DNA from: Verrucomicrobiota bacterium
Lineage (GTDB): Bacteria; Verrucomicrobiota; Kiritimatiellia; CAIVKH01
Direction: 5' to 3'
Assembly: GCA_024233345.1 (NCBI GenBank)
Contig: JACKPT010000005.1
Location: 105,072 to 169,071 of the forward strand
DNA length: 64,000 nucleotides
Shown: piece after piece, positions 18,828 through 63,552 of the stretch
Position numbering within the stretch: position 1 is the stretch's first letter
Layout of the letters: the number at the start of each line of letters is the position of its first letter
Translations under genes and position numbers: made by a program
Notes under the pieces: model-generated
Told to the model about the DNA's origin: nothing
What the model saw: the letters and a program-made list of their open reading frames with translations, nothing else
Database searches by the model: none

Positions 18828-20153
18828 ATGACCACGCCAGTGCGTTTCGATCTCACTCAGAACGATATTCCCGAGCAATGGTTGAATCTCGCTCCCATGT
18901 TCAATGAGCCGCTGCCGCCTCCGCTTCACCCGGGAACCCAGCAGCCCGCGTCCCCCGAAGATATGGGTAAAATCTTTCCCATGAATATCCTCGAGCAGGA
19001 AATGTCCATGGAGCCGTGGATCAAGGTCCCGGAGGAAGTCCGTGAAATCTACGCCCTGTGGCGCCCGACCCCCCTGTTGCGGGCGGTCCGTCTCGAGCGC
19101 GCACTGAAAACGCCGGCCAAAATTTACTACAAATATGAAGGGGTTAGTTACGCAGGCAGCCACAAGCCCAACAGCGCGGTGGCCCAGGCCTATTACAACC
19201 GCGAGGCCGGCACCAAGCGGGTGGTGACCGAAACCGGGGCCGGACAATGGGGGTCTGCCCTGTCTTTTGCCTGCAAGGTCTTTGGCCTGGAGTGTGTGGT
19301 GTACATGGTGAGTGTCAGTTACCACCAGAAGCCTTACCGCAAATTGTTGATGCAAACCTGGGATGCCACCGTGCACGCCAGCCCGAGCCGGGAGACTGCC
19401 TTTGGTCGAGCCCTGTTGGAAGAGCGCCCGGATCACCCCGGCAGCCTCGGCATCGCCATCAGCGAGGCCATCGAAGATACCGTGACCAGCAAGGACACCA
19501 AGTATGCGCTCGGCAGTGTGCTTAATCATGTCTGCCTCCACCAGTCAGTGATCGGACAGGAATCGATCAAGCAGATGGCCCTGGCCGGGGTGGAACCCGA
19601 TACCATCATCGGGTGCATCGGTGGCGGCAGTAATTTCGCGGGCATCGCCTTCCCATGGATTCACCGGTCCCTGACCGAAAACAAAAAATACCGCATCATC
19701 GCGGTGGAACCGGATGTATGTGCCTCCATGACCAAGGGCGAGCTGCGGTATGACTTTGGCGATACCGCGGAAACCACCCCGCTCATGATGATGCATACCC
19801 TCGGGCACAAATTTGTTCCCCCCGCCATTCATGCGGGCGGTCTCCGCTATCACGGGATGGCCCCCATGGTCAGTCATGCCCGCAAGCATGGGTGGATCGA
19901 GGCCAAGAGTTACCAGCAATCGCGCATTTTCGAGGCCGCGGTTCAATTTGCACGAACCGAGGGCATCATTCCCGCCCCCGAACCGTCTCATGCGATTGCT
20001 GCGGTGATCGACGAGGCGATCGACTGTCGGGAGAAGAATGAGCCTAAAACCATTCTGTTCAACCTGTGTGGGCACGGGTTCCTGGATATGGCGTCTTACG
20101 ATGCTTTTCTGACCGGTAAACTGCACAATGACACCCCCGGATCCGAGGGCTGA
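18828..20153 (+). CDS. Tryptophan synthase beta-like PLP enzyme (TrpB2 family)
   Basis: 441 aa with AGSHKPNSA (PLP lysine) and GGGSNFAGI, TrpB2-type length. Confidence 0.8.
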   Translation: MTTPVRFDLTQNDIPEQWLNLAPMFNEPLPPPLHPGTQQPASPEDMGKIFPMNILEQEMSMEPWIKVPEEVREIYALWRPTPLLRAVRLERALKTPAKIYYKYEGVSYAGSHKPNSAVAQAYYNREAGTKRVVTETGAGQWGSALSFACKVFGLECVVYMVSVSYHQKPYRKLLMQTWDATVHASPSRETAFGRALLEERPDHPGSLGIAISEAIEDTVTSKDTKYALGSVLNHVCLHQSVIGQESIKQMALAGVEPDTIIGCIGGGSNFAGIAFPWIHRSLTENKKYRIIAVEPDVCASMTKGELRYDFGDTAETTPLMMMHTLGHKFVPPAIHAGGLRYHGMAPMVSHARKHGWIEAKSYQQSRIFEAAVQFARTEGIIPAPEPSHAIAAVIDEAIDCREKNEPKTILFNLCGHGFLDMASYDAFLTGKLHNDTPGSEG

Positions 20154-20241
20154 TTCCACGCGTGGTCCGGTTGAAGCCATCCCCCCTGGCCCGGTGCGGT
20201 CGGCGGGGGATGCGCTTTGGATTCAACGCCACGGTCAAAAG

Positions 20242-20322
20242 GGTTCCAATGCCTGGAAAATCCATTCCCCAAAGTTCCAATCATTGGAAAATGCCCCGGA
20301 AAAAGTTCCAAGGATTGGAATC
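20242..20322. promoter_or_regulatory. Array of three 31-bp-phased dyad repeats (TTCCAA-N3/4-TGGAA/TTGGAA) directly upstream of the ECF sigma gene
   Basis: Units are centred at about 20251, 20282 and 20313. Unit 2 (TTCCAATCATTGGAA) is a perfect palindrome. Unit 3 shares the 18-nt string CCGGAAAAAGTTCCAAGG with the array at 62617. Confidence 0.6.
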
Positions 20323-20334
20323 TGTTGAGCCCGT

Positions 20335-20955
20335 ATGAATAAAGCCTCGCCAGAGCCGTCCAACTCCGAGGATGGATACGTGGATTGGACAGAACTTGAA
20401 ACCTGGGTGGAGCAGGCCCGCTCCGGCGATGAAGAAGCGTTTGGCCGGGTGGTTCAGGCCCTCCATGGCCGGGTGTATGCCGTGGCCTATCGGTACATGG
20501 GAAATGCCGATGACGCACGGGAGGTGACACAGATGACCTGGGTCAAGGCATGGCAGAAACTGGGTACCTACCGACAGCAGGCCAGGTTCTACACATGGAT
20601 CTATCGGATTGCCGCCAATGCCGCCATGGATCATTTGCGCAAAGCCGGCCGACGCCGGGAGTCGGAGTACCTTGATGCGTTGGACCACTCGAATCCCCCT
20701 GAAGTGGCGGCGTCTTTGCGGGCAAACCAGGACCGCCCGGACCAGTTGCTGATGCGCAAGGAAAGACTGGAAGCCTTTGAATCCGCCCTTGGCAAACTCA
20801 AGGAGGAACACCGGATGATCCTGGTGCTGCGGGAATTGGAGGGGATGTCCTATCAGGAAATTGCCGAGGTCATGAAGTGCCGCGCCGGGACCGTAATGTC
20901 CCGTCTGTTTTACGCACGGAAGGCCATCCAGAAAGAGCTGAAGGAGCTGTTGTGA
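20335..20955 (+). CDS. ECF (sigma-70 family) RNA polymerase sigma factor
   Basis: Region 2 (YRYMGNADDAREVTQMTWVKAWQKL) and region 4 (LRELEGMSYQEIAEVMKCRAGTVMSRL). Confidence 0.85.
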   Translation: MNKASPEPSNSEDGYVDWTELETWVEQARSGDEEAFGRVVQALHGRVYAVAYRYMGNADDAREVTQMTWVKAWQKLGTYRQQARFYTWIYRIAANAAMDHLRKAGRRRESEYLDALDHSNPPEVAASLRANQDRPDQLLMRKERLEAFESALGKLKEEHRMILVLRELEGMSYQEIAEVMKCRAGTVMSRLFYARKAIQKELKELL

Positions 20956-20966
20956 ATACAAAAGCC

Positions 20967-21473
20967 ATGGACAAGCTGCTGAGCGGGGCGTTGGACGGGG
21001 AATTGACCCCCGGGCAGCGGGCTCAGGTTGAACAGTGGTTGGCGAACCATCCGGACGCGGTGGCTCAGCAGGAACAGTGGGCGAGGGTGGGGGACCTTCT
21101 CCGCGAACCGCTGAACCCTCCGGATCCCGAGATGGAATGGCAGGCCATCCGTCGCACCATTCGCAGCCAGGCCCCGGCGGCCGATGCCGTCGCGGCCGAA
21201 ACCCCGGTTTTCTCATGGCGCATGGCCTGGGCGGCTGCTATGCTTGGTTTGGTCAGCTTGGGACTCTATCTGATCGCGGGATTCCAGCTCCATCAGGGAA
21301 CCCTGATGGCCCATGGCCAATCAGGAGCGCCTGCGGAGGTGGAATGGGCGGAATCCGGGGTTCCCGGAGCCACCATGATGATTTTTGCGGATCAGGAAAC
21401 CGGTATGACGGTGATTTGGATGGACGTGGAACAAAACGGAAACAACGATACCAAGGAGCTCGAGGGGTCATGA
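20967..21473 (+). CDS. Anti-sigma factor (single TM helix)
   Basis: Translationally coupled to the sigma gene (a GTG at 20952 overlaps the sigma stop; ATG at 20967). It has LLSGALDGELTP...WLANHPD, then one TM helix. Confidence 0.6.
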   Translation: MDKLLSGALDGELTPGQRAQVEQWLANHPDAVAQQEQWARVGDLLREPLNPPDPEMEWQAIRRTIRSQAPAADAVAAETPVFSWRMAWAAAMLGLVSLGLYLIAGFQLHQGTLMAHGQSGAPAEVEWAESGVPGATMMIFADQETGMTVIWMDVEQNGNNDTKELEGS

Positions 21474-21880
21474 AAACGAAATGGCTCGCCGGATGCCTGT
21501 GGTTGCTGTTGGCGATTGCGGCTCCTGCCGCAGATCAAATTCATGCCCTGATGATCGAGGCCTCGAACGAACCCGCAGTCATTGACCGTCGACTGGAAAA
21601 GGTCGAATACAAACTTCGCCGGGTCTTTGGATTTCCCTATTATCACTTCGTTGCCGAACAGACGGTTATGGCTCCCGCCGATGGACAGGTCACCGTGCCA
21701 CTGGCCAATGGTCACCGACTCATCCTCTCTGGTAAGGGATTGAGGGTCACGGTGCAATGGTTCAAGAACGACGAAATCCTTCTGACCACCAAGGTCAGCC
21801 TCAACAAGGGTTCGCCGGTAGTGCTCGGTGGCGTACCCCACGGCGATGGCACCCTGATCGTGGCCCTGACTGCTCAGTAG
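21470..21880 (+). CDS. Small secreted hypothetical protein (signal peptide MKTKWLAGCLWLLLAIAAPAA)
   Basis: ATGA overlap with the anti-sigma stop. Third gene of the sigma operon. Confidence 0.5.
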   Translation: MKTKWLAGCLWLLLAIAAPAADQIHALMIEASNEPAVIDRRLEKVEYKLRRVFGFPYYHFVAEQTVMAPADGQVTVPLANGHRLILSGKGLRVTVQWFKNDEILLTTKVSLNKGSPVVLGGVPHGDGTLIVALTAQ

Positions 21881-29144: not shown

Positions 29145-29213
29145 TCCAGACCTTGGTAATGAGGGTTGCCACCGAGGCCATTCAGCGACTAGAATAACGG
29201 CTTTCTACAGGAT

Positions 29214-30170
29214 ATGACAACGGATTACGAAAATCAGCATCGATTTGATGACACCATTTCGGTCGTAATCCCCGTACTCAATGCCGGGAAGTATCTACCG
29301 ACCCTGCTCCCGGCAATCTTCTCGCAGCGACCGGTGGCCCCCGGCGAGGTCATCCTGGTGGATTCCGCCTCCACCGACAATACACGTGAGGTGGCGGCAA
29401 CGTTTGATCGCGTGCGGGTGATTCCCGCCGGTGCCTTCTCCCATGGCCGCGCTCGCAACCTGGGCGTGCGCGAAGCCAAAGGCACCTTTGTGATCCTCAT
29501 GACGCAAGATGCCCTTCCGGTGGGCGATGATTGGCTGCGCCCCCTGCTGGCTTCATTTGAAGACCCCCAAGTTGCTGCAGTGTATTCCCGGCAGGTGCCC
29601 TATGAAAACGCTACCCCGATGGAGCGGTTCTTCCTGTCGGTTCATTTCCCCGATGGAAATCTGACCTTACAAAGAAAAAAGGAGGGTCGCGATATCCAGT
29701 TTACCGATGCCTTTTTCTCAAATGTCAGCGCCGCCTATCGGAGGGCGACTCTCCTTGCGTGTCCATTTGATGAGACGTTAATTATGAGTGAAGATCAGCA
29801 AGTATCACGAGATCTATTGAATCATGGATACCTTGTTGGATACCAGCCCGCCTCTGTTGTGCTTCATTCCCATCGATATTCATTGAGGTCGATCTTTTGC
29901 CGCTATTTTGACAGTGTCTATTCCATCATGCAGATTTTTCCTGATCATGGCATTAAGGAAAGTTCCTCGATTGGGTTGAGCTACCTCTGGCGGGAAGCTT
30001 GGCACATTTTAACCAAGCATCCGCTATGGATTCCGTATTATATCGGCTATGTATTTTCCCGTTCTACCGGGACGATGGCGGGCCACTGCGCTGATCATTT
30101 ACCCAGGTCGCTTTTGCGGAAGATCAGCATGCATGCCTACCACTGGTCGGACAAAGGAACCGCGTCATGA
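29214..30170 (+). CDS. GT2-family glycosyltransferase
   Basis: ISVVIPVLNAGKYL...ILVDSASTDNT...MTQDA. Confidence 0.8.
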   Translation: MTTDYENQHRFDDTISVVIPVLNAGKYLPTLLPAIFSQRPVAPGEVILVDSASTDNTREVAATFDRVRVIPAGAFSHGRARNLGVREAKGTFVILMTQDALPVGDDWLRPLLASFEDPQVAAVYSRQVPYENATPMERFFLSVHFPDGNLTLQRKKEGRDIQFTDAFFSNVSAAYRRATLLACPFDETLIMSEDQQVSRDLLNHGYLVGYQPASVVLHSHRYSLRSIFCRYFDSVYSIMQIFPDHGIKESSSIGLSYLWREAWHILTKHPLWIPYYIGYVFSRSTGTMAGHCADHLPRSLLRKISMHAYHWSDKGTAS

Positions 30171-30946
30171 TTGTGCTTGATATCTATCGATATGCTTTGT
30201 GGAACCTGATTCTCAAGGACTTTCGGGTCCGTTATCGCAATATGTCACTAGGGGTGTTGTGGTCGATTTTGAATCCTCTGATCATGCTGGGGGTGCTGGT
30301 TGTGGTTTTTGGCTATATTTACCCGAATAAAACCATTCAGTATTATCCCGTATTTTTATTGCTGGGTCTGATTCCCTTTAATTTCTTTTCGCTGTGTATT
30401 TCATCCAGTACCACGGCTTTGCTGGAGAATAGCTCATTGATCAAGAAGTTGATGTTCCCCCGGATCATTCTTCCCGTGTCCATCGTCCTTTCCCAGGTGA
30501 TTCACCTGGTGATTCAACTCGGACTACTGGCGGTGTTCATTGTCATGTTTCACGTTCCGATTACCGCCCATTATTTATGGTTACCCCTGATCTTTATGGT
30601 CGAATTGGTCTTTATTCTGGGATTAGCCCTAATTTGCTCTTCATTGGATGTGTATTTTCGGGATACGTTATACATCGTTCAGTCAACCCTGACCGTCCTT
30701 TTCTGGTTTACTCCGATTTTCTATCCAGCCTCTCTGGCCAATGAGAATCTGCCGCGTCCTCTGTATTTGCTCTTTATGGCGAATCCGCTTTCCGGTTGCA
30801 TCGAGGCAGCCAGGCGTGCGGTTCTTGGACAAACCTCTCCGGAACGTGATTTATTTCTCATGGCGATGGTCGTGGCCTTCGGCACCTTTCTACTCGGCTC
30901 TTTGTTGTTTCGGAAAATGGAAAAGAATCTGGCGGATTATCTATAA
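30167..30946 (+). CDS. ABC-2 type polysaccharide export permease (Wzm/TagG/KpsM-like)
   Basis: 259 aa with 6 TM helices. Overlaps the upstream GT2 gene by 4 nt. Confidence 0.85.
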   Translation: MIVLDIYRYALWNLILKDFRVRYRNMSLGVLWSILNPLIMLGVLVVVFGYIYPNKTIQYYPVFLLLGLIPFNFFSLCISSSTTALLENSSLIKKLMFPRIILPVSIVLSQVIHLVIQLGLLAVFIVMFHVPITAHYLWLPLIFMVELVFILGLALICSSLDVYFRDTLYIVQSTLTVLFWFTPIFYPASLANENLPRPLYLLFMANPLSGCIEAARRAVLGQTSPERDLFLMAMVVAFGTFLLGSLLFRKMEKNLADYL

Positions 30947-31686
30947 TGTCCACGGTCGCCATTCAAATCAGCGAAGTCAGCAAGCGGTTTATTCTGCGGA
31001 AACAGCGCCCTTTTCTTCTACATGAATTTGTTCGCAAGCTCTATGGTCGGCGAAACCCCGCCGATGAGTTTTGGGCGCTCAAGGAGGTCTCATTTACCAT
31101 ACAGAAGGGGGAATCGGTTGGTATTATCGGGCACAACGGAGCCGGGAAATCCACCTTGTTGAGTTTGATCATCGGGTCGGCAAGACCAACCCATGGCCAC
31201 ATACAAGTTGAAGGCCGGATCGGTGCCCTGTTGGAGCTGGGGGCTGGATTTCATCCTGATCTGACTGGCCGTGAGAATATCTTTCTCAATGCTTCTTTGC
31301 TGGGTTTGTCGCATGAGACCATTGCCAGGCAGTTTCAAGCCATCATCGACTTTTCTGAACTTGGGGAATTTATCGATGTTCCGATCAGAAATTATTCCTC
31401 GGGCATGCATGTCAGACTGGGTTTCTCGGTGGCCATTCATATCGACCCAGATATTTTGATCATGGATGAGGCGTTGGCGGTTGGAGATGCCAACTTTCAG
31501 CAGAAATGTCTCGCGAAAATTGAGGATATGAAGTCCCGCGGCAAGACGTTGCTACTTGTGTCCCATGGTATGGAGAGCATTCAAAAATTGTGCTCAAAGG
31601 CGGTATGGTTGGAACATGGGACCAAGGTTCTGGAGGGCCCTGTCGGTGAGGTTATCGATGCCTACCATAAGCGTATGCGGGTATGA
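30946..31686 (+). CDS. ABC transporter ATP-binding protein (Wzt/TagH/KpsT-like)
   Basis: Walker A GHNGAGKST, signature YSSGMHVRL, Walker B ILIMDE. Confidence 0.9.
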   Translation: MSTVAIQISEVSKRFILRKQRPFLLHEFVRKLYGRRNPADEFWALKEVSFTIQKGESVGIIGHNGAGKSTLLSLIIGSARPTHGHIQVEGRIGALLELGAGFHPDLTGRENIFLNASLLGLSHETIARQFQAIIDFSELGEFIDVPIRNYSSGMHVRLGFSVAIHIDPDILIMDEALAVGDANFQQKCLAKIEDMKSRGKTLLLVSHGMESIQKLCSKAVWLEHGTKVLEGPVGEVIDAYHKRMRV

Positions 31687-31944
31687 ACCGTCGTCCGGTT
31701 CGCTAGAAAAGACGACGTCGGTTCAGCCATGAAAAAAATCGGTTGACCACCCGTTCATACCGGAGTGCCAATCGATAGCCGTACACCGGAATCAGGTGTG
31801 TGACACCAATCATGATCAGATTGTGAATGCCGGGCCAACGGCTAACTGCTCCCAGAGGTATTCCATAAGCCGCCAGGGCATGCTTGGCTGTTCTCCCGTA
31901 GGGAAGGCTGCGAAGGTCTCCGCTTGGTGTTTGCAACGGTGATT

Positions 31945-34017
31945 TCATGACAGGTGAATCAAATTGAGTGCGATGTGTTTCAGTGCGTACCAGGTTCGCA
32001 GAAAGGGGCGCCACATCAGGCTTCTTTCGGATTCCTCCCAAAGCCGCTGTGCCGGAGTATGATTTCGTTCGGTTGGGCTTCGGTTGCTATCAATATCGTT
32101 GACATGATGCCGATGGCGTAACAGGGCGACTTCGCGCGTCTTAGGGAAGCCAAACTTAGCCACAATCGTGTGTGTTAGCCATGGCTTCATTCGGTTTGCA
32201 TCATGCCCGGAAAGAATCAGAGCAATAGCGAGCGGTCCGGCAGCATCGAGAATACCTTGTTGGAGTGGTGCGATATGAAGACTCTGCTCATATTCCATTT
32301 GGAAAACCGGGTCATCCTTGTGACGAAAAATGAGGCAAGAGTCAACCTGCTGGCTATAGCTCAATAAACCCGGTTCCGGAGGACGACAAACCTCCTCAAA
32401 TAACTCGAGATAGTATTGGACCATACTGGCAAAGACATCTTGCCGCCGACCGTCATGAATCCATCCCGACAAGCGACTTTCGGAATGCTCTGGGAAGGGT
32501 ATCTTGAATGTCGCAGCAAATAGCAGCCCATGCAGGGTGGGCCGCTTTTTGAGTGGTGCAATGCAAAGATCGAAGAGACGCTGAATTGTACCAAGCCAGC
32601 CGATGTCGACGAGTCCGACATGTTGAAAATCCAGTAACCCTTGGGATTGGATGTAGCGTATAAATCCTTGGTGAGCATCGGACTTTTGCTCCCGAACCTG
32701 TGCTTGGAAATCCTGGTCATCCAGCAGATCGCGAAACCGGTTTGCGATTTCCGGGGTATGGCCCGGATAATTGGCGCTTAGATCGTCATGAAGTTTCAGC
32801 CCGTGGGCTCGCAGAAAGGGCTCCAGTGGCTCTGGATCAAGATCGGCTACACGGCACAAGTCTTGAAAATCCCGATTGCCCGGGGGAAGAAAGGCGATCA
32901 TAGCCAAATCAGGACTGAGTCCAACCGCCCCGCAACTGGCGGCGGCAAGGGCCTTACGACTCACATGCAGATATCGCACCTCGGGAAGGGGTCCCCCCTC
33001 GGCAAGAATCGGTGCCATCCGCGACCAGATCTGTTCGAAGAGATGGCCTTCACGTGATAGAAAGTAAAGTACCGGAATGGATTGCTCCCGGCTGGTTCTC
33101 TCCAGGTGGGCAATGAACCCTGCCAACAGAGGGCCAAAAAAACAGTATCCTTCCCGATAGAGCTGTTCCCCCCCGGTGAGTTGTTGTGCTTCAGCCTCAA
33201 GTGGGAGTGCAATTTGCAAAAGGTAGCGACCATACCAAAAAGACTTCCGCTGGCTGGCAAGGAAATACCGTTGAAGAACAGCCTTGCGTTTCTTTTCCTC
33301 GGCGTCTCGCAGGCAATAAGCGGTAATTCCCAGAGAAGCCGGACGTAGGCCATCAGAAAATGGATGGTCGCCAATGTGAAGCCATCGGCGCGGTGAATAG
33401 CCATGACGCTCCACAAGCCGATAAAACCCCTGCCCGGAAGCCTTGGCCCGGCAGGAGTCCGCCGAAGAGTGGACCGATTGAAAATAGGCGCCCAATCCAG
33501 CTTGATGCAGCAGTTGTTGGATCGCGTCACCGGGAAGATACATGTCACTGAGCGCAATCAGCGTTTTACCCCGGTCACGCAGGTGGGTCAGTAGGTCAAT
33601 CCATGCCCGACGCGCAATCAACAGTCTGCTTTCCAAGGTCAATTCATAGTCCAGGATTTGGTCGAGGATGACAGAATTGGGTTGGGGGCCAAAGATTTCC
33701 TCGACCATCTCACCTATGAACTGAGGATAAATGGCTTCATGGTCGGGATGAATCAGGCCGTTTCGCTTGCGATGTTTTGCTTCGATTCTTCCGCGAATCC
33801 GCAAAACATGATCTGGGTGAATCGTAATCTCCTGACGGTTCGCGAGATTAGACACAAATCGGCAGACCGATCCCTTGATATGATCCGGGTCATGAACCCG
33901 CCGGATGAGCAACGTGTCGAATACATCAAATGAGATGAGATCATAACGATCCTGATTTTTGAGTACGGTAGCGATCAGGTCGTCAAGGCTGTAGAAGGTA
34001 TCGACCATCAAAGCCAT
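31945..34017 (-). CDS. Large HAD-superfamily-domain protein (N-terminal DxFDTLL motif) with a ~450-aa uncharacterised C-terminal region
   Basis: 690 aa. LISFDVFDTLLIRRV (HAD motif I) and ALSDMYL. It lies in the glycan cluster. Confidence 0.6.
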   Translation of the reverse strand: MALMVDTFYSLDDLIATVLKNQDRYDLISFDVFDTLLIRRVHDPDHIKGSVCRFVSNLANRQEITIHPDHVLRIRGRIEAKHRKRNGLIHPDHEAIYPQFIGEMVEEIFGPQPNSVILDQILDYELTLESRLLIARRAWIDLLTHLRDRGKTLIALSDMYLPGDAIQQLLHQAGLGAYFQSVHSSADSCRAKASGQGFYRLVERHGYSPRRWLHIGDHPFSDGLRPASLGITAYCLRDAEEKKRKAVLQRYFLASQRKSFWYGRYLLQIALPLEAEAQQLTGGEQLYREGYCFFGPLLAGFIAHLERTSREQSIPVLYFLSREGHLFEQIWSRMAPILAEGGPLPEVRYLHVSRKALAAASCGAVGLSPDLAMIAFLPPGNRDFQDLCRVADLDPEPLEPFLRAHGLKLHDDLSANYPGHTPEIANRFRDLLDDQDFQAQVREQKSDAHQGFIRYIQSQGLLDFQHVGLVDIGWLGTIQRLFDLCIAPLKKRPTLHGLLFAATFKIPFPEHSESRLSGWIHDGRRQDVFASMVQYYLELFEEVCRPPEPGLLSYSQQVDSCLIFRHKDDPVFQMEYEQSLHIAPLQQGILDAAGPLAIALILSGHDANRMKPWLTHTIVAKFGFPKTREVALLRHRHHVNDIDSNRSPTERNHTPAQRLWEESERSLMWRPFLRTWYALKHIALNLIHLS

Positions 34018-34023
34018 GAACTC

Positions 34024-34908
34024 CTAACTGGATCGAAAACGGCGAAGGAAAGAACCAAGCCGACTGGATTTCAGGGCCTGGACGGGGGAGCCTTGAATCT
34101 CTGACAACTCCCGTTCCAACTGTACAAGTCTATCGGCTCCAGTGGCGACTCGAACGCGCTCCTGCTCTGAAATCCCGGCAAGTAAATACGTTCGAATAAC
34201 CCGTTGATCTTCCAGGCGCGCCTTGATCGCACCCTCCTTGAGGGTATTGCTGCCGTGAATTCGATAGTGGAGCAGTTGATCGCCATCCAAGTAATGAACG
34301 GAACCCGGATTCGCCAGCATCATCCGAAAAATAAAGTCATAGTCATGTAGATAGCGCAAGGGGGAGAAGAATCCGGTTCTTTCAAAAGCAATACGGGAAA
34401 AAAACAGGTTTGACGTGGTCACCATCAGATTGCCGTGGAGGAAGGCGGTATAGAGATCCCCAAGGGCAAAGTAGGTCTCTCGATTGTTCTTATGCCAATG
34501 ATGCCAGAAAAAATTCGGATCGGTAATCGGCTGGTCGGCATCATTGATCGGGATCACATCGGTAAAAAGGCAGCTCGCCTGGAGAGTATCCTTTGCCTTC
34601 CACAATCTCTGGAGACGATCAGGATGATAGGTGTCATCGGAATTGATAATTGTCAGCCAATCCCCAGTTGCCAATTTGAGTCCGTTGTTCAGAGCGTTGT
34701 AGGCATCCTGATTTTCCTGATGGACATATCGGATCCGTGCGTCTTGATCCGCTGCAGAGCGGACAAGTTCACCGGTGCGATCCTGTGAACCATCGTCAAT
34801 TACCAGTAGTTCAAAGTCGCCGAAGGATTGCTTGAGGACACTTTCAACTGCCTGTTGAACATACCGTTCGTGGTTGTAAGCAGGCATGATGACCGATATC
34901 GCAGGCAT
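34024..34908 (-). CDS. GT2-family glycosyltransferase
   Basis: ISVIMPAYNHERYV...LLVIDDGSQDRT...INSDD. Confidence 0.85.
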   Translation of the reverse strand: MPAISVIMPAYNHERYVQQAVESVLKQSFGDFELLVIDDGSQDRTGELVRSAADQDARIRYVHQENQDAYNALNNGLKLATGDWLTIINSDDTYHPDRLQRLWKAKDTLQASCLFTDVIPINDADQPITDPNFFWHHWHKNNRETYFALGDLYTAFLHGNLMVTTSNLFFSRIAFERTGFFSPLRYLHDYDFIFRMMLANPGSVHYLDGDQLLHYRIHGSNTLKEGAIKARLEDQRVIRTYLLAGISEQERVRVATGADRLVQLERELSEIQGSPVQALKSSRLGSFLRRFRSS

Positions 34909-35009
34909 GATGTGGTTACTTTGCTTTCTGGTGCAGGAAATTCAAGACCGAAACGCATCGGGGTTGAATGAACCTTACGGCGAGACCTTAGAGGCTGCAG
35001 AATTGACCG

Positions 35010-37791
35010 TCATTGAGGGGATCCCCAATAGGTGCCAAAATACAGTGGGGCTCCAGGCCCGAGTTTGCGGACAAACCACGCTCCGGAGGTGCGTTGATAG
35101 ACTGCGAGGTCATTCTTGCCATCACCATTGTAATCACCCGGAATCGGATCCATCGAGGCATCTCCCCAGTTTTGGCCGAACGTGATGGGTGGATAGGCAG
35201 GACCGACTGGTCCCAGAGATCGTATGAACCAATTTCCAGTCGCACGTTGATAGACCGCCAAGTCGGCCCGGAGGTCCCCGTTGAAGTCACCTGGTACAGG
35301 GTCCATGGATGCATCGCCCCAATTTTGGCCAAAGGTAATGGGTGGGTAGGCTGGTCCAATCGGCCCGAGCGATCGAATGAACCAATTTCCAGTGGCTTTC
35401 TGGTAGACCGCCAGATCGTGCTTGCCATCCCGGTTGTAATCGCCAGGGACGGGAATCATCGAGGCATCACCCCAGTTTTGACCAAAGGTTATGGGAGGAT
35501 ACGCAGGACCGATCGGTCCAAGAGATCGGATAAACCAATTGCCGGTCGTCCGTTGATAGACTGCGAGGTCAAAAATACCATCTCCATTGTAATCACCCGG
35601 TGCCGGGTCCATGGAGGCATCGCCCCAATTTTGACCAAAGGTGATGGGTGGTCCGTTGGTGATTGTGCGAATAAACCAGTTCCCAGTTGTGGGTTGATAA
35701 AGGGCAAGGTCATAGACGCCATCCCCATTATAATCACCCGGGACAGGAATCATCGAAGAATCCCCCCATTGAAGGTTGTACTGGGTGAACGAATTGGTTG
35801 AACTGGGACGAATATACCAGAGTCCGGTACTCATTTCATAGGCGGCCAGATCGGAAATACCATCTCCATCATAGTCGCCGGACACCGGGATTGTGGGTTG
35901 CGTTGGTCCCAGCAGAATGGGAGCGACCGAAAGACTTTCGACTGACCTAGAACCATCGGAAACTACCATGCGGATGTAATACCTGCCGACGCGGGCACCG
36001 GGGGGCCATGTCCAAGATCCTGGTCCCGGATATTGTTGCAGGGTCGCAATCGGTGTGGTTGATGGCACAATGGTTCCCACTTCATTCTGGCGGTCCGCGA
36101 AGAGTTGAATGGAGAGCAGGTCACCATCCAGGTCGGTCAGATTCCAGGCCACTTGAAAGAGTCCTTGGGTTGGCGTATTTTCAGCGCATAATTTTATTTC
36201 ATCCAGCCAAAATTGTGTGGGGATATGGGCTTCCATTGGGTCGAATCGAAGATGCTTGATGAAACCGACTTCTTCCCAACCGCGCTGCGGTATCTCGGGG
36301 ACCGCCGAGCGATCTTCATGAAACAGGTTGTCCCACAGGTCTACAGTATAGGTCCGCCACTCTTCCAGCAGTGGTATGTCCTTGGAGTAGGTACCGTCCA
36401 GCGTAATGCCCTCATTCCACCACAAGACTCTGGACTCCCATCCTCGCGCCACCTTGTCGAAAATATCTCCATAGCCGACTGGTGAACATTTTATGGTATG
36501 GGTGAAGTAGCGGTATTTTCGAGTATTGATTGGAACAATGACCCCATTGCGCTTGGTGTTTAACCAAATCTGATCATCTGATTCCGGATAGGGTGGAATT
36601 GGGCTGTCGGTGATTGCGGAGAAAATGCCGCCAGCATAACTGACACTGTTCATCTGATAGAGCTGATCAATATCCGAACCATTCGTAAAATCCCATGGGT
36701 TATTGAGTTCTGAGGTCGCGTAGTCTACCCCGCTGGTGAAACTGGGAGACTGTATATCGATGACCGGGGGGTGACCGATTCGAATCAGGGCGCTGTAGGC
36801 GCTCAGGGCAATCTGTTGGAGAGCCGAGTTCTGGTGGCGGATGCCCTTCAGGTATACATAGTAATCTCCCGGTGGAAGGGCGGCGGTTTTCAAGTCGTAG
36901 CGTCCATCATTGTCAAGGCCGGAGACGAGCAGATCACCATCAAATCCGGAGGCATTATTGTCGATGAACAACTGGATCGAGTCGTACGCTCCATCGAGGC
37001 CGGAAGAGGACCATTGGATGCTGACCGTAGGCGAGGCGGCGGGGTCATAGGCGCGGATCCAGTCAAAGGAGACTGTCGCCCCGGCCGACCCCTGGCTGCT
37101 GGGCCAGAGATGAAAGCCATAAATCATTCCGGACCACGGCAGTCCGGCTTTATTGGGGGGGATGGCCAGAAAGCTGTTTCGCTCGTTCATCCAAGTGGTC
37201 CCATTGGGATCAATGTCATAAATTCGGAATCCGGAAGATTGGGGTAAGGTCACATATTGCCCGCTCCCATTGAAGCTCGGTTCGCCATCAAACCACGTTA
37301 TCAGGTTCCCTTCCGCTGCGGGCCACTGATTAAACTGTTTGGCCCAAAAAATACTGATGTAGGACCGTTCGGTCTGGGCCAGCGACATTCTGAAAGATAA
37401 GTGTGAATACCGATCTGCATTCAATGGGTTTAATGGTCCATAGGGCATGCCCCCGGTGTACCGTGAGTAATAGCTGGTGTAATTCGGACGAAGAAATCCC
37501 GGGGAAAGCGGATAGACATAATAAGGAGTAACCGCTGATGTCCCGGTCCAGATGCCTCCGGTTGCCTGAATCGACTGGAATCCCACATCCAGTGCGATGT
37601 CTCTGAGATCCTGCATATCCCAAGGCTGGTGAGCAACGGCAGTAGCGAACTCGTCACCATCCGCTACGGTAACGGATTGCAACGGTGCTGTCAGAGTCAA
37701 CGACTGCCCCAAGGCTTGAAAACCCATGCAGACCACACCGACGAGGAGATAGAATCTAGTGCCCATCGGCTTATAAGATAGGAAAATCATC
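35010..37791 (-). CDS. Large secreted protein with C-terminal FG-GAP/VCBS-like tandem repeats
   Basis: Signal peptide MGTRFYLLVGVVCMGFQALGQS (start 37767; alternative 37791; the ORF track's 37934 overlaps the upstream gene). Six units of about 49 aa of the form PGDYNGDG.DLAVYQRTTGNWFIR...FGQNWGDASMDPV. Confidence 0.7.
35040..35900. repeat. Coding tandem repeat of about 147 bp x ~6 (FG-GAP/VCBS units)
   Basis: Near-identical peptide units are encoded in series, and DNA-level similarity is visible (repeated ccaaaggtgatgggtgg / ccccaattttggcc blocks on the plus strand). Confidence 0.65.
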
Positions 37792-37833
37792 TCCCGTTGT
37801 TTAGGACATAAACTTAAAGGGATGGTTATTCCT

Positions 37834-39402: not shown

Positions 39403-39487
39403 TATTTTCCTCAGGGTGGGCTATACCGTATGGGAGAATTTTTCCCTGACCTTTTCCAACAGGCAAACTCGTGATAGTATACACGAT

Positions 39488-40132
39488 ATGAGCAAATTTC
39501 CATGTGTTTCTTTCTGGATTTTGATCAGTATTTCAGGCCTCACGCCATTAATGGCACAAACGGAGCCAGCAGGGGCATCGATGGCGTCACCTTCGACATA
39601 TCGGATTTCTGCCCTGGTTGATAGTACCAACGGGGTACGGGTGGGCTTTGTGAACGTATCGGATGGAACTTCTTTCTTTATTTCCGAAGGCGAGGAGAGC
39701 CATGGGGTCTTTGTCATCGAAGCAGATTATTTGAGGGAGAGAGTATTGCTATCCCTGCAGAATAAACTGCGGGAACTCTATCTTACCGATGACCCGGATT
39801 CGAGAGTGGTCCACATCGTCCCCACAGCACCAGTCGACGCTACCGGAGTCACGGCGGCAGACCTTGGGATCGATCAGCTTCAGGCGACTCCTTCTGATTA
39901 CCCTTCCGCAGGTTTGCAGGCGATGATGGCGCAGTTCCCGGATTCGGTGCCTACCAACTTTGGTCATCAGCCCAATGCGATCCAGCAATACCTTGAGGAG
40001 AATCCGGAGGTTGCGATATCACTCGGTAAATCGCCCGGCCGATACGGATCAGGAATTGAAGAAATGCTGCGCTTGAATCCTGACCTGAGCAATAATCTGG
40101 AGAGGACTCAATCCTTTCCCACATCCCCTTGA
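39488..40132 (+). CDS. Secreted hypothetical protein
   Basis: Signal peptide MSKFPCVSFWILISISGLTPLMAQ. The ORF track's earlier start (39356) overlaps the upstream gene. Confidence 0.5.
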   Translation: MSKFPCVSFWILISISGLTPLMAQTEPAGASMASPSTYRISALVDSTNGVRVGFVNVSDGTSFFISEGEESHGVFVIEADYLRERVLLSLQNKLRELYLTDDPDSRVVHIVPTAPVDATGVTAADLGIDQLQATPSDYPSAGLQAMMAQFPDSVPTNFGHQPNAIQQYLEENPEVAISLGKSPGRYGSGIEEMLRLNPDLSNNLERTQSFPTSP

Positions 40133-60627: not shown

Positions 60628-61520
60628 CGACGGGCCTCCCGGCGGCGGAACAGGCGGATCAGTTCGTGGATGTAATCGCTGTCGGGATCGGTGGTAACCG
60701 ACAGGTGATCGATACCGGAGGCTTTGAGAAAGGTTGCGGTCTGTTCGCGCTGCTGTTGCTGGCGTTGCCGATAAGCATCCCGGGTTGCCCGGTCGCTGGT
60801 GTCGATCTCCATCCGGGCCCCGGTTTCCGGATCCTGAACCGCGATGACTCCCACCGCCTCCAGGGCATGCTCGCGCGGATCGGTCACCTGGATCGCCACC
60901 AGGTCATGGCGCTTGGCATAGGCCCGCAGGATCGGTTCGTATCCGGTGTCAAGGAAATCGCTGATGAGAAAAGTGATGGTGCGCCGGTGGTGAATCCGGT
61001 TCAGGTAGTGCAGGGCTTGCCCGATATCGGTGCCGCACCCTTCCGGCTGCTTGTACAGGACATCCCGGATCACCCGCAACACATGACCCGACCCTTTGCG
61101 GGGAGGGATGGCATGCTCGGGGTGGTCGGTGAACAGCAGCAGTCCCACCCGGTCATTGTTCTGGATGGCCGAGAACGCGAGCACCGCAGCGATCTCTGCG
61201 GCCAGATCGCGTTTGAGCATCCGGATCGATCCAAATTGTTGGGAGCCGCTGATGTCCACCGCGAGCATGACCGTCAATTCTCGCTCTTCCCGGTATTTTT
61301 TGATGAAGGGATGCCCCATACGCGCGGTCACATTCCAGTCGATCGACCGGATGTCATCGCCCGGCACATATTCCCGGACCTCCTCGAATTCCATCCCCTG
61401 GCCTTTGAACGCGCTGTGGTAGTGCCCGGCAAACGCATCGGAGACCATGCTCCGAGTGCGGATCTGGATGCGCCGAATCTTTTTGAGAAGATCCGATGGA
61501 ATCATGGCGGACTCCGTCAC
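60624..61520 (-). CDS. DUF58 (vWA-like) protein, MoxR partner
   Basis: MLAVDISGSQQF and VLLFTDHPE... Confidence 0.8.
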   Translation of the reverse strand: MTESAMIPSDLLKKIRRIQIRTRSMVSDAFAGHYHSAFKGQGMEFEEVREYVPGDDIRSIDWNVTARMGHPFIKKYREERELTVMLAVDISGSQQFGSIRMLKRDLAAEIAAVLAFSAIQNNDRVGLLLFTDHPEHAIPPRKGSGHVLRVIRDVLYKQPEGCGTDIGQALHYLNRIHHRRTITFLISDFLDTGYEPILRAYAKRHDLVAIQVTDPREHALEAVGVIAVQDPETGARMEIDTSDRATRDAYRQRQQQQREQTATFLKASGIDHLSVTTDPDSDYIHELIRLFRRREARR

Positions 61521-62527
61521 GGGACCGGGAGTTTGCTGAGGATTTGTTCGACCACGCCTTCGGAGGTCAGTTCTTCGGCTTCCGCCTCGTAGGTGATGAG
61601 GACCCGGTGACGCAGGACATCGGGGGCGATGGATTTGACATCCTGGGGGGTCACATAGCCGCGGCCCTGCAGGAAGGCGTGGGCCCGGGCCGCCATGGTC
61701 AGGCAGATCGTGGCCCGGGGCGATGCGCCGTAACGGATATATGGCGCGAGGTTCAGATCGTAATCGCCGGGGTTGCGGGTGGCGAAAATAATACTGAGGA
61801 TATATTCCTTGATCTTGTCATCCATGTAAATTTCGTCCACCAGCTCCCGCAATTGCAGGATCCGGTCCGGTTGAATGACCGGTTTGACATCCGCCGGGCC
61901 CTTGGACCGGGCCATACGCTCGACGATGGTGCGCTCTTCATCCAGCGAGGGGTAGGTGACATTCAATTTGAGCATGAACCGGTCAACCTGGGCCTCGGGC
62001 AGGGGATAGGTTCCCTCCTGCTCGATGGGGTTCTGGGTGGCCAGGACGAGAAAAGGCTCCGGCAGGTGGAAGGTTTCCTGGCCGATCGTCACCTGGTGTT
62101 CCTGCATGGCTTCAAGCAGCGCGCTTTGCACCTTTGCCGGCGCCCGGTTGATTTCATCGGCGAGAATGATGTTGGTAAAGACCGGTCCCTTGCGGATGGT
62201 AAATGCTCCATCCTTGGGGTTGTAAATCTGGGTGCCGACAATGTCGGCGGGCAGCAGGTCGGGGGTGAACTGGATGCGTTGAAACGAAACCGCGAGTGCC
62301 GATGCGAGGGTTCGGATTGACAAGGTTTTGGCCAGTCCGGGAACCCCTTCAAGCAGCAAGTGCCCATTGGTCAGCAGTCCGATCATCATCCGGTCCACCA
62401 ATGCCTGCTGGCCCACAATGACCTTGCCCATTTCACGCCGCAGATCCTCCACGAAGGAACTCTCCTCCCGAACCCGCTGGTTGATGACTTCAATGCCTGT
62501 ACTTGTCATAGTTGATGTCTCCTCCAA
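61517..62527 (-). CDS. moxR: MoxR-family AAA+ ATPase
   Basis: Walker A LLEGVPGLAKTL, ADEINRAPAKVQSALLEAMQE. Confidence 0.9.
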   Translation of the reverse strand: MEETSTMTSTGIEVINQRVREESSFVEDLRREMGKVIVGQQALVDRMMIGLLTNGHLLLEGVPGLAKTLSIRTLASALAVSFQRIQFTPDLLPADIVGTQIYNPKDGAFTIRKGPVFTNIILADEINRAPAKVQSALLEAMQEHQVTIGQETFHLPEPFLVLATQNPIEQEGTYPLPEAQVDRFMLKLNVTYPSLDEERTIVERMARSKGPADVKPVIQPDRILQLRELVDEIYMDDKIKEYILSIIFATRNPGDYDLNLAPYIRYGASPRATICLTMAARAHAFLQGRGYVTPQDVKSIAPDVLRHRVLITYEAEAEELTSEGVVEQILSKLPVP

Positions 62528-62559: not shown

Positions 62560-62710
62560 GTTCAAATCCCTTGGCGGAAAAAACGCTGAAAGGCGTCCGC
62601 AGGATGGAAGGCCCTGCCGGAAAAAGTTCCAAGGCTTGGAAACTAGCACAAAAAAAGTTCCAAGGGTTGGAACTTTTTTGGACAGAAAATCCAACCCTTG
62701 GAACAAATCC
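62560..62710. promoter_or_regulatory. Array of 3-5 31-bp-phased dyad repeats (TTCCAA-N3-TTGGAA) upstream of moxR / the Bat operon
   Basis: Units centred at 62634 (TTCCAAGGCTTGGAA), 62665 (perfect 13-bp arms AAAAAAGTTCCAA GGG TTGGAACTTTTTT) and 62696 (ATCCAACCCTTGGAAC), plus degenerate units around 62572 and 62603. Shares 18-nt CCGGAAAAAGTTCCAAGG with the 20296-20313 unit. Confidence 0.6.
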
Positions 62711-62739
62711 GGGGGCGCCCGGCCGGGGTGGCCGGCGAC

Positions 62740-63552
62740 CTATTCGTTGACCCGTTCCGGGACTGCGGTCTGGGTGCGGAAAGAAATGAATTTAAGGGTT
62801 TCTTCCCACGACTTTTTATCGGCGTCCTGGTCGTAGGCGGCGCCGGAGGCGGTGTCGCTGCCCGCGTTGATGTCGGTGAAGGAATGCACCGCACCCGGAT
62901 AGGCGATGAAGGTGTAGTTCACATCTGCATCCTCCATTTCCTTTTCAAATGCATTGACTTCTTCAGGAGGCACGTAGGGGTCATCGGCACCGTGCAGGAC
63001 GAGAATCGGACACTTGATGTTCTTGGCGTCATCCGGGGTGGGGGAACTGAGTCCGCCATGGGTGGACACCACACCTTGCAGGGTGGCGCCGGACCGGGCG
63101 AGCTCCAGCGCGGCGGTTCCGCCAAAGCAATAACCGATCGCGACCACCCGGTCACCGTCCACATAGGGAAGCCCGCGCACGGCATCCAGCGCGGCTTTGA
63201 CCCGTTCCCGGAATACTTCGCGATTGCTCTTGTAGGCCCCGGACAACGCGGCGCGCTCCGGAACCGTTTCCGGGCGGTAGCCCTTGCCATAGACATCCGC
63301 AGCCAAAGCCACATACCCCAGCTCGGCCAGGCGGCGAGCCCGTTCAAATTCATGCTCGCTGGGGCCTGCCCACTGATGGAAGATCAAAACCGCTGGCACC
63401 GGCTCATCGATTTCCTCCGGACGGGCCAGATAGCCCTCCAGAGTCACATCGTCCAGTTGATACTCGAATGTCTCGGTGTGGATGGGGCCAGCCTGAAGGT
63501 TGATGCCGGTGAGGACTCCGGACAAGACCAGCAGTCGTAAGAAATGCTTCAT
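62740..63552 (-). CDS. Secreted dienelactone hydrolase-family alpha/beta hydrolase
   Basis: AAAGGAG Shine-Dalgarno, signal peptide, IGYCFGG nucleophile elbow. Confidence 0.8.
   Translation of the reverse strand: MKHFLRLLVLSGVLTGINLQAGPIHTETFEYQLDDVTLEGYLARPEEIDEPVPAVLIFHQWAGPSEHEFERARRLAELGYVALAADVYGKGYRPETVPERAALSGAYKSNREVFRERVKAALDAVRGLPYVDGDRVVAIGYCFGGTAALELARSGATLQGVVSTHGGLSSPTPDDAKNIKCPILVLHGADDPYVPPEEVNAFEKEMEDADVNYTFIAYPGAVHSFTDINAGSDTASGAAYDQDADKKSWEETLKFISFRTQTAVPERVNE

Follow-up and report, generated by a model that had tools for sequence, protein, structure and literature searches.

Upstream of an ECF sigma factor gene from a bacterium of the class Kiritimatiellia (Verrucomicrobiota), a short palindrome, TTCCAA-N3-TTGGAA, is repeated three times at a regular spacing, and a second set of the same kind lies upstream of a Bat-like operon. 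This arrangement raises the question of whether the palindromes are control elements of the genes they precede or copies of a more widespread element and, in the latter case, what that element might be. The initial annotation favored the former, proposing that the sigma factor regulates itself through these sites and that the same factor controls the Bat operon. Here, we analyzed a stretch of 64,000 nucleotides (hereafter, the window) together with related loci from other genomes.

Two phased arrays in the window

A motif search of the window identified two arrays, at 20244-20320 and 62627-62703, each composed of three TTCCAA-N3-TTGGAA units with an exact period of 31 bp, and no further copies (Table 1). 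The three dyad units previously described before the sigma gene were thereby confirmed, including their spacing. With up to one mismatch allowed, six matches were obtained against 0.21 expected, and none of 100 shuffled sequences reached six. When the window was scanned with a position weight matrix derived from 385 units in related genomes, the same six sites were returned and no other at 8 bits or above (null, 0.15). Together with the arrays found in more than 110 loci elsewhere, these counts bear out the earlier claim that the palindromes form a genuine repeat family rather than a chance resemblance.

In array 1, the units read TTCCAATGCCTGGAA (20244-20258, one mismatch), TTCCAATCATTGGAA (20275-20289) and TTCCAAGGATTGGAA (20306-20320), and each is preceded by an A-run (AAAAGGG, CAAAG and AAAAAG, respectively). 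The middle unit of array 2 is a perfect 27-bp palindrome, AAAAAGTTCCAAGGGTTGGAACTTTTT. The two arrays share an exact 18-mer, CCGGAAAAAGTTCCAAGG, on the + strand at positions 20296 and 62617. The initial annotation had cited this shared 18-nt core as a link between the two arrays; the match is indeed exact, but 12 of the 18 bases are simply the family consensus AAAAAGTTCCAA.

Table 1. Arrays and neighboring features in the window
Feature	Position	Strand	Evidence and context
PALP, TrpB-like PLP-dependent enzyme gene	18828..20153	+	Pfam; array 1 starts 90 bp past its stop codon
GC-rich hairpin CATCCCCC...GGGGGATG, then GCGCTTTGG	20173..20219	+	Fold and sequence; between PALP gene and array 1
Array 1	20236..20325	.	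Cores 20244-20258, 20275-20289, 20306-20320; 31-bp period
ECF sigma factor gene	20335..20955	+	Pfam; ATG 14 nt past last array 1 unit
Two genes, 173 aa and 136 aa	20952..21880	+	No Pfam hit; conserved cassette with sigma gene
MoxR AAA+ ATPase gene	61517..62509	-	Pfam; first in Bat-like operon; start 117 bp from array 2
Array 2	62617..62710	.	Cores 62627-62641, 62658-62672, 62689-62703 (one mismatch); 31-bp period
GC-rich hairpins	62709..62735	-	Just 3′ of dienelactone hydrolase stop, between that gene and array 2
Dienelactone hydrolase gene	62740..63552	-	Pfam; 3′ end faces array 2, 36 bp off

The identities previously assigned to the ECF sigma gene and the Bat operon agreed with Pfam, the latter being a Bat-like set of MoxR, DUF58, BatA/VWA, VWA, TPR, BatD and TPR-SH3 genes. 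Array 1 lies directly upstream of the sigma gene as annotated, although the gap is 14 nt (20320 to 20335) and not 13 bp; public gene calls agree on the ATG at 20335. Array 2 likewise lies upstream of the Bat operon, 117 bp from the MoxR start, but it also lies 36 bp 3′ of the stop codon of a dienelactone hydrolase gene on the same minus strand. The 173-aa and 136-aa products are presumed to be anti-sigma or partner proteins. The hairpin at 20173..20219 is a probable intrinsic terminator of the PALP gene and was not called by a simple terminator scan. No sigma-70 promoter match was found in the intergenic region of array 1 or of array 2, Rfam at gathering score gave no hit in the whole window, and no tRNA or tmRNA gene was detected in the window.

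A repeat family shared across Kiritimatiellia

We scanned a one-genome-per-species collection with the pattern GTTCCAANNNYTGGAA-N13-17-GTTCCAA and obtained at least 115 loci, against about 10 chance hits estimated from the information content of the pattern and the size of the collection. The loci listed derive from 41 assemblies, many of which contributed several loci each. Among the matches listed, about 36 of the 41 assemblies were labelled Kiritimatiellia/-ales/-aeota, Pontiellaceae, Verrucomicrobiota, PVC group, Lentisphaerae or "uncultured bacterium", and the few loci from other phyla (Lachnospiraceae, Moraniibacteriota and Anaerolineaceae) contained no real arrays. Both window arrays belong to a repeat family that extends across the class Kiritimatiellia. 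The scanned loci contained at least 130 arrays with two or more units. Counting units with up to one mismatch among the matches listed, there were 32 single units, 59 arrays of two, 55 of three, 16 of four and one of six; array size is small and bounded. A full-text search of the literature returned no description of the motif, and Rfam likewise gave no match in the window.

The arrays also extend to viruses, as seven stretches on six IMG/VR contigs carry them. One of these phage contigs, which encodes terminase, portal, protease and major head genes, contains a 4-unit array, and this is consistent with a phage using a host factor.

When we compared lineages, array density differed widely. The genome bin-1020 carries 2-3 arrays per 8 kb, whereas the 64-kb window has two arrays, both intergenic, and no single units. 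In 23 kb of Tichowtungia aerotolerans, we found 15 single, mostly degenerate units against 1.5 expected, many of them inside genes, while 23 kb of Pontiella desulfatans contained no units and a Pontiellaceae isolate had one 6-unit array. A role as a DNA uptake sequence (DUS/USS) was considered and rejected, since an even, high density in coding and non-coding DNA was not found and the window has only two arrays in 64 kb, both intergenic. The dispersed single units within genes of T. aerotolerans run counter to this verdict.

Some arrays lie within coding sequences. One M16C peptidase gene (locus L065) contains a 2-unit and a 3-unit array, both in frame, and the peptides FQTLEK, VPSIGK and SSKGWKF correspond to the three reading frames of the unit; at another locus (L014), a 5-unit array lies inside an ORF of more than 5 kb. 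The M16 orthologue of P. desulfatans has the same protein length and DNA without a unit at the array positions, and in that of T. aerotolerans the corresponding positions are occupied by degenerate units. That the peptidase arrays arose by insertion is thus unsupported, because the protein is as long as the array-free Pontiella orthologue. Only a single Y1_Tnp gene was encountered in the sampled loci, and it is flanked by an unrelated repeat at a locus without arrays (L218). The in-gene arrays, the uneven density and the phage arrays together keep a REP-like or selfish component in play. In-ORF arrays and uneven lineage density are features of selfish repeats more often than of operators, and in this respect they count against a reading as protein sites.

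Anatomy and helical phasing of the unit

Across the family, the unit can be written as (A/T-run)-TTCCAA-N-S-N-TTGGAA-(A/T-run), iterated 2-6 times at 31-32 bp. The twelve core positions were 97-100% invariant over 355 units among the matches listed. The center of the spacer was G or C in 135 of 136 units, with T and A as frequent neighbors (TGA/TCA), and apart from this center the triplets vary freely. Before each half-site lies an A/T tract, AAAA[G/C] or TTTT. A-runs were found beside the core at 291 half-sites and T-runs at 133; the two would be equivalent for a DNA-shape readout, but not for an RNA hairpin followed by a U-tail. No constraint was seen on the middle 6-7 nt of the linker, which are G+C-rich.

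Arrays whose period is 31 bp have CTTTT-N6-AAAAG as their consensus linker, and their units read AAAAG-TTCCAA-NSN-TTGGAA-CTTTT. This commonest unit of the 31-bp lineages (AAAAS-core-STTTT) resembles a bidirectional terminator, an observation that counts against a protein-site reading.

Center-to-center spacing, among the matches listed, was 31 bp in 126 cases and 32 bp in 77, and some arrays alternate 32-31-32. The mixture, with a mean of about 31.5 bp, corresponds to three turns of 10.5 bp. Rare spacings of 41-43 bp (n=6), 53 bp (n=2) and 62-65 bp (n=3) were also observed. Of the spacings outside 29-33 and 62-65 bp, 8 of 10 fell within 1.5 bp of whole turns (four or five; P=0.009).

We then asked whether the units carry a direction. 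In 136 units from same-strand intergenic regions, oriented by transcription, each position matched its mirror position (all p>0.13), and AAAAS flanks were found 54 times on the 5′ side and 53 times on the 3′ side. This symmetry with respect to the direction of transcription indicates that the units hold no strand-specific RNA signal. Among 206 deviating arm pairs, 200 were one-sided and only 3 compensated, about the chance expectation; because deviations are uncompensated, it is the sequence that is kept and not base pairing. The core hairpin, with a stem of 2/6 GC, was calculated at -3.3 kcal/mol alone and -5.9 with an extra G-C pair, and it reached -10.2 only if a U-run pairs with an A-run. 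About a third of the classifiable flanks read TTTT-core-AAAA, which gives no U-tail. Spacing, symmetry, uncompensated changes and weak hairpins together point to a site in double-stranded DNA that would be read by a symmetric protein.

Position relative to genes

Genes in the related loci were predicted with a codon-usage caller of our own, whose output in the window agrees with the public calls; its calls are approximate, especially at start codons. Among the matches listed, 101 arrays had genes called on both sides: 49 lay between same-strand genes, 22 between convergent and 12 between divergent genes, and 18 overlapped a called gene, most of these touching the gene end only. When intergenic regions of at least 60 bp in the same loci were examined, an array was present in 44% of those between convergent genes, in 23% of those between same-strand genes and in 17% of those between divergent genes (chi-square p=0.0017). 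Approximately 80-90% of arrays were intergenic although the coding fraction is about 85%, and many convergent regions of 70-140 bp consist of an array and nothing else.

At half of the gene ends facing an array, the array lay within 30 bp of the stop codon, and it often started within 10 bp. Convergent bias and closeness to stop codons fit a REP-like repeat or a terminator equally well, which counts against the protein-site reading. The distance from an array to the downstream start codon ranged from 1 to more than 100 nt without a peak, and with no fixed distance the idea that the last GGA acts as a Shine-Dalgarno sequence or in leaderless initiation was rejected. In same-strand regions, arrays were closer to the stop than to the start (median 36 vs 65 bp), as a trend only (p=0.07-0.15).

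Clustering of 222 flanking proteins revealed no recurrent family. The 55 downstream genes matched 101 different Pfam families and include unrelated housekeeping genes such as those for glycogen synthase, IlvD, HemE, PheS and a release factor. This distribution, with unrelated genes on the flanks, does not match that of promoter elements or of operators of a regulon. Of the gene ends in the sampled loci, only about 7% had a canonical terminator with a hairpin and T-run, and the share did not differ near arrays; given this baseline, such terminators were uninformative as a proxy for transcription across the arrays.

Conservation at orthologous loci

We examined loci with orthologues of the window's sigma gene, all labelled Kiritimatiellia. 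Six contigs of the same species (sigma 100% identical) carry an identical array. In the closest relative outside the species (L122, sigma 93%), the three units are kept, with unit 1 shifted toward the consensus and with changes in the central triplets and linkers. At 74% identity (L123), the upstream gene is a different one and only a half-unit remnant is present. At 60% and 51% (L124 and L126), the sigma gene abuts or overlaps its upstream gene and leaves no intergenic DNA, and at 49% (L127) a 323-bp intergenic region has no unit. By contrast, a distant orthologue (L125, 52%) has a four-unit array (32-31-32) in a divergent region. Outside the window's species, the orthologous sigma-173aa-136aa operons thus have an array in 2 of 6 cases (L122 and L125) and lack it in 4 of 6, which shows that the array is not a conserved part of the control region of the sigma operon.

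Between the window and L122, changes were found at 1 of 36 core positions, 2 of 9 positions of the central triplets, 4 of 12 linker positions and 7 of 30 positions of the A/T flanks, compared with 17 of 94 in the rest of the intergenic region and 17% of third codon positions in the sigma gene. A second pair of orthologous arrays (L009 and L045, upstream gene 85.5% identical) differed at 1 of 36 core positions, 4 of 9 in the central triplets, 8 of 12 in the linkers and 32% of third codon positions. When the two pairs were pooled, the core had changed at 2 of 72 positions against 49 of 196 elsewhere (Fisher p=7e-6). Judged by these substitution counts, orthologous arrays are under purifying constraint, at the core positions only. 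Copies kept at the core alone are hard to square with the neutral decay of a selfish insert, and diverging linkers are hard to square with conversion tracts, which would homogenize the linkers too. As a negative control only, 80 MoxR loci from a metagenome scan (58-72% identity, probably mostly from other phyla) contained no array in 313 kb.

Alternative explanations

These observations bear directly on the model of the initial annotation, in which the units are autoregulatory promoter elements (stacked -35 boxes) or operators that jointly control the ECF sigma gene and the Bat operon. In its favor, 14 nt separate array 1 from the sigma ATG, and 117 bp lie between array 2 and the MoxR start downstream of it; L122 has kept array 1, and the distant orthologue in L125 is preceded by an array of four units. 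Nevertheless, the GGAAC half-site on which the -35 resemblance was based does not occur on the + strand of 20236-20334, where the units read TGGAAA, TGGAAA and TGGAAT, and across the family only about 21% of units have a C after TTGGAA. Sigma autoregulation through the array fares no better: the proposed alignment of orthologous sigma promoters revealed the array missing in 4 of 6, two of them without any intergenic space, so that it is present in only 2 of 6 operons outside the species. Array-to-start distances of 1 to more than 100 nt have no preferred value, and arrays are most frequent where no promoter exists, that is, between convergent genes. A shared ECF/Bat regulon is at odds with arrays that, among the matches listed from about 36 genomes, lie beside more than 200 unrelated genes in which no family recurs, that precede unrelated housekeeping genes, and that occur between convergent genes (22 arrays), on phage and inside ORFs. 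We consider this model extremely improbable; at the level of sequence comparison, sigma/Bat co-regulation is already contradicted and should be dropped. A second possibility is that the arrays are tandem bidirectional terminators, in which an RNA hairpin between an A-run and a U-run, possibly aided by a lineage-specific factor, replaces the scarce GC-rich terminators. The AAAAG-TTCCAA-NSN-TTGGAA-CTTTT form of the 31-bp-period units, the arrays within 30 bp of the stop at half of the facing gene 3′ ends, the convergent enrichment, the canonical terminators at only about 7% of gene ends and the arrays on a phage genome would all suit such a role. However, the core hairpin is weak (-3.3 and -5.9 kcal/mol) and no stable GC-rich stem is present, and a terminator needs neither sequence invariance nor helical phasing. 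T-runs have no 3′-side bias in same-strand regions (54 vs 53), about a third of the classifiable flanks could form no U-tail, and arrays also occur in divergent regions and inside ORFs. In the window itself, both arrays lie 3′ of separate GC-rich hairpins, and the array 1 units have no sense-strand U-run. We regard a terminator function of this kind as improbable.

The remaining alternative, a REP/BIME-like interspersed repeat, has more in its favor, and we consider it a serious contender though still unlikely. It would hold that hairpin palindromes are spread or homogenized by a RAYT-like enzyme or by gene conversion and are tolerated mainly at gene 3′ ends, with at most secondary effects such as mRNA stabilization or gyrase/IHF binding. 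The arrays are extragenic, high-copy, dispersed and biased to gene 3′ ends, and their flanking genes have no functional link; convergent regions are enriched and divergent ones depleted, and arrays often fill the whole intergenic region or overlap stop codons. They also lie in frame inside the M16 peptidase gene and the >5-kb ORF, as Rickettsia palindromic elements do, and their density is very uneven (bin-1020, the window and P. desulfatans). Units within some arrays (L012 and L125) are nearly identical, which suggests local duplication. On the other hand, one 12-nt core is kept class-wide, whereas a REP sequence is usually confined to one species. Different copies have unrelated linkers and loops, indicating that the copies were not pasted as units, and orthologous arrays keep their cores while neutral sites diverge by 17-67%. 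The logo, AAAA[G/T]-TTCCAA in perfect dyads, has no GTAG/CGTC head, spacing follows the helical repeat even off 31-32 bp, and compensatory changes are not in excess. Moreover, the only Y1 transposase encountered is flanked by another repeat, and the M16 arrays entail no length change relative to the array-free orthologue.

A proposed role as phased protein sites

The explanation we prefer, to which we would give about an even chance on the sequence evidence, is that the arrays are sites for a dimeric DNA-binding protein that would assemble along a single helix face at gene boundaries; the protein partner is putative. Of the earlier proposals, the one that best accounts for the mechanism is still that of a dimeric regulator binding iterated sites on the same DNA face, given the dyads, the spacings at multiples of about 10.5 bp and the uncompensated deviations. 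Anatomy, phasing, symmetry, distribution and conservation of the arrays are direct observations. Binding, the identity of the binder and any effect on transcription are what we infer from them, as follows.

Each unit would bind a homodimer of one sequence-specific protein, with recognition elements in two major grooves centered about 4.5 bp on either side of the dyad and with the flanking A/T tracts one turn from it. Neighboring dimers on the same helix face may interact with one another, bending or wrapping the DNA to form a small nucleoprotein complex. Complexes placed at gene boundaries suggest an architectural or insulating function, which could block read-through, occlude overlapping promoters or fix local topology, and not the control of one regulon. 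Over array 1, such a complex would occupy the 90 bp in front of the ECF sigma ATG, where it could occlude the sigma promoter or separate sigma from the upstream gene; in that case, the promoter must overlap array 1 or lie upstream of it.

A bolder version would have Kiritimatiellia and their phages mark gene boundaries by means of a dedicated, putative dimer that polymerizes on phased TTCCAA-NSN-TTGGAA arrays. The resulting bidirectional roadblock or insulator would act as a factor-based terminator and domain boundary and would replace the scarce intrinsic terminators. We offer this version as speculation and hold it to be rather doubtful.

If a protein does bind, the arrays would represent an element of chromatin or of gene boundaries that is defined by its sequence and shared by a whole class, in a PVC lineage that has been little studied, and they would also show how transcription units are delimited in Kiritimatiellia, in which GC-rich terminators were seen at about 7% of sampled gene ends. 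The near-invariant 12-nt core makes the element directly testable. In metagenomic data, the motif is further a simple marker by which contigs of Kiritimatiellia and of their phages can be recognized. We propose that annotators should not read TTCCAA-N3-TTGGAA arrays as gene-specific operators.

Comparison with known systems

In site layout, the arrays resemble the targets of Lrp-family regulators, which bind clustered (semi)palindromic sites on one helix face, with centers two or three turns apart, cooperatively and with wrapping of the DNA (PMC2995911). Lrp/AsnC targets such as the Ss-LrpB boxes and the E. coli Lrp sites at pap and ilvIH are 13-15-bp (semi)palindromes clustered on one face at 2-3 turns, a layout that the arrays share (PMC2995911). 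Lrp sites are degenerate with an A/T-rich center, whereas the Kiritimatiellia units are near-invariant and need a central G or C; this G/C center, unlike the A/T-rich centers of Lrp-type sites, counts against the protein-site reading. With its very many targets, Lrp comes close to a nucleoid protein. Its clusters lie in promoter regions, whereas the arrays favor gene 3′ ends and convergent regions. NrdR boxes, reported by Rodionov and Gelfand in 2005, are said to be tandem 16-bp palindromes with centers 31-32 bp, or three turns, apart, bound by an oligomerizing repressor. They differ in that they are known only from upstream of ribonucleotide reductase genes, in pairs and with another sequence. 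For both Lrp and NrdR, the likeness is one of site layout and we do not claim membership in either group, as sequence, G/C center and gene-boundary location differ.

Rickettsia palindromic elements and the cyanobacterial HIP1 are lineage-wide, highly iterated palindromes that may sit in frame inside genes. The arrays are likewise lineage-wide and iterated, with some in frame inside genes. However, Rickettsia palindromic elements are 100-150 bp long and clear insertions, in contrast to in-gene arrays, which leave protein length unchanged. HIP1 consists of single 8-bp sites that do not form phased arrays, unlike the phased Kiritimatiellia units.

REPs are imperfect palindromes of 20-40 bp with a GTAG/CGTC head, a feature defined in PMC3733652. 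Like the arrays, REP/BIME elements of enterobacteria and pseudomonads are short extragenic palindromes in hundreds of copies and small arrays, mostly 3′ of genes of any function; binding of architectural proteins (IHF, gyrase) and effects on mRNA 3′ ends have been proposed for them (PMC3733652). REPs alternate in orientation within BIMEs, are usually species-specific and are linked to RAYTs, whereas the Kiritimatiellia units are perfect dyads of 15-25 bp in direct helical register with a class-wide core and no associated RAYT seen in the sampled loci. We place the arrays among known kinds of element, either phased operator clusters or interspersed extragenic palindromes. They are unusual in combining class-wide core invariance, strict helical phasing, preference for gene boundaries, presence in phages and upkeep inside some coding sequences.

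Arrays within genes and on viral contigs

Arrays of the TTCCAA-N3-TTGGAA unit were found within coding sequences at two loci of the motif scan, where they lie in frame in an M16C peptidase gene (L065, at two positions) and in an open reading frame of more than 5 kb (L014). Read in its three frames, the unit encodes the peptide motifs FQTLEK, VPxxGK and SxxWK. When the array-containing M16C peptidase was compared with an array-free orthologue from Pontiella, the two proteins had the same length. Three M16 peptidase orthologues (P0148, P0158 and P0163) also carry a second in-frame insert, unrelated to the TTCCAA arrays, which encodes PTPAFGHPSxxGN...IPSxGGVPxGRGGF and looks like a translated copy of another dispersed palindromic repeat.

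Arrays were also detected on viral contigs. The phage or prophage contig IMGVR_UViG_3300035698_006241 (L214), which encodes a terminase, a portal protein, a protease and a major head protein, carries a four-unit array with spacings of 31, 31 and 41 as well as additional single units, and arrays were present on five further viral contigs. In the Tichowtungia aerotolerans locus (L208), 15 single units were found in 23 kb at up to 2 mismatches, against 1.5 expected. Most of these have the form TTTT-CCAA...TTGG-AAAA and many lie within genes; the single units of this locus represent another mode of occurrence than the intergenic arrays. A type I-C CRISPR-Cas operon is also present in the same locus.

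Coordinates of the arrays, genes and regions described in the text
Feature	Sequence	Position
In-frame arrays, M16C peptidase gene	L065	804-850; 2003-2079
In-frame array, long open reading frame	L014	4469-4607
Second M16 insert, two loop positions	alignment A1	columns 276-322; 848-884
Sigma cassette	window	20335-21880
Array remnant	L123	1080-1126
Four-unit array	L214	650-767
Locus with 15 single units	L208, CP047593	2308307-2331195
Region of lower G+C	window	29200-40000
91-aa protein	L217	19357-19632
Y1 transposase	L218	24-491

The sigma cassette and its genomic setting

The genes for the sigma factor (206 aa) and for proteins of 173 and 136 aa overlap at their stop and start codons, and this cassette is kept in every orthologous locus, at identities as low as 49%. 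Since the two proteins encoded 3′ of the sigma gene had no Pfam match, they may constitute an undescribed anti-sigma pair. At L123, where the sigma orthologue is 74% identical, only a half-unit remnant of the array (ATTGGAAAATGC) is left, about 20 bp 5′ of the sigma start codon, and the upstream gene differs from that in the window; the array position therefore coincides with a synteny break.

Elsewhere in the window, a region whose genes encode glycosyltransferase, ABC-2 exporter and ABC ATPase proteins has a G+C content of 0.49-0.54, compared with about 0.59 in the remainder, and may be an acquired island for polysaccharide export. Across L001-L115, the loci of the motif scan, a canonical intrinsic terminator, defined simply as a stem of at least 6 pairs (at least 4 of them G-C) followed by a T-run, was found at only ~7% of gene 3′ ends with an intergenic region of at least 40 bp.

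Comparison with known systems

Hc2 is a histone H1-like protein of chlamydiae. A 91-aa protein from a Kiritimatiellaceae MAG, with a weak Pfam match to Hc2, is a possible nucleoid protein of its lineage, although nothing ties it to the TTCCAA arrays. In a Kiritimatiellia relative of low G+C content (0.45), the sequence GCTGCAAG[C/T]AGCGGGGTAT occurs on either side of a RAYT-like Y1 transposase of 155 aa, and no TTCCAA arrays were found at this locus. The transposase and its flanking repeat form a REP-like system separate from the TTCCAA arrays.
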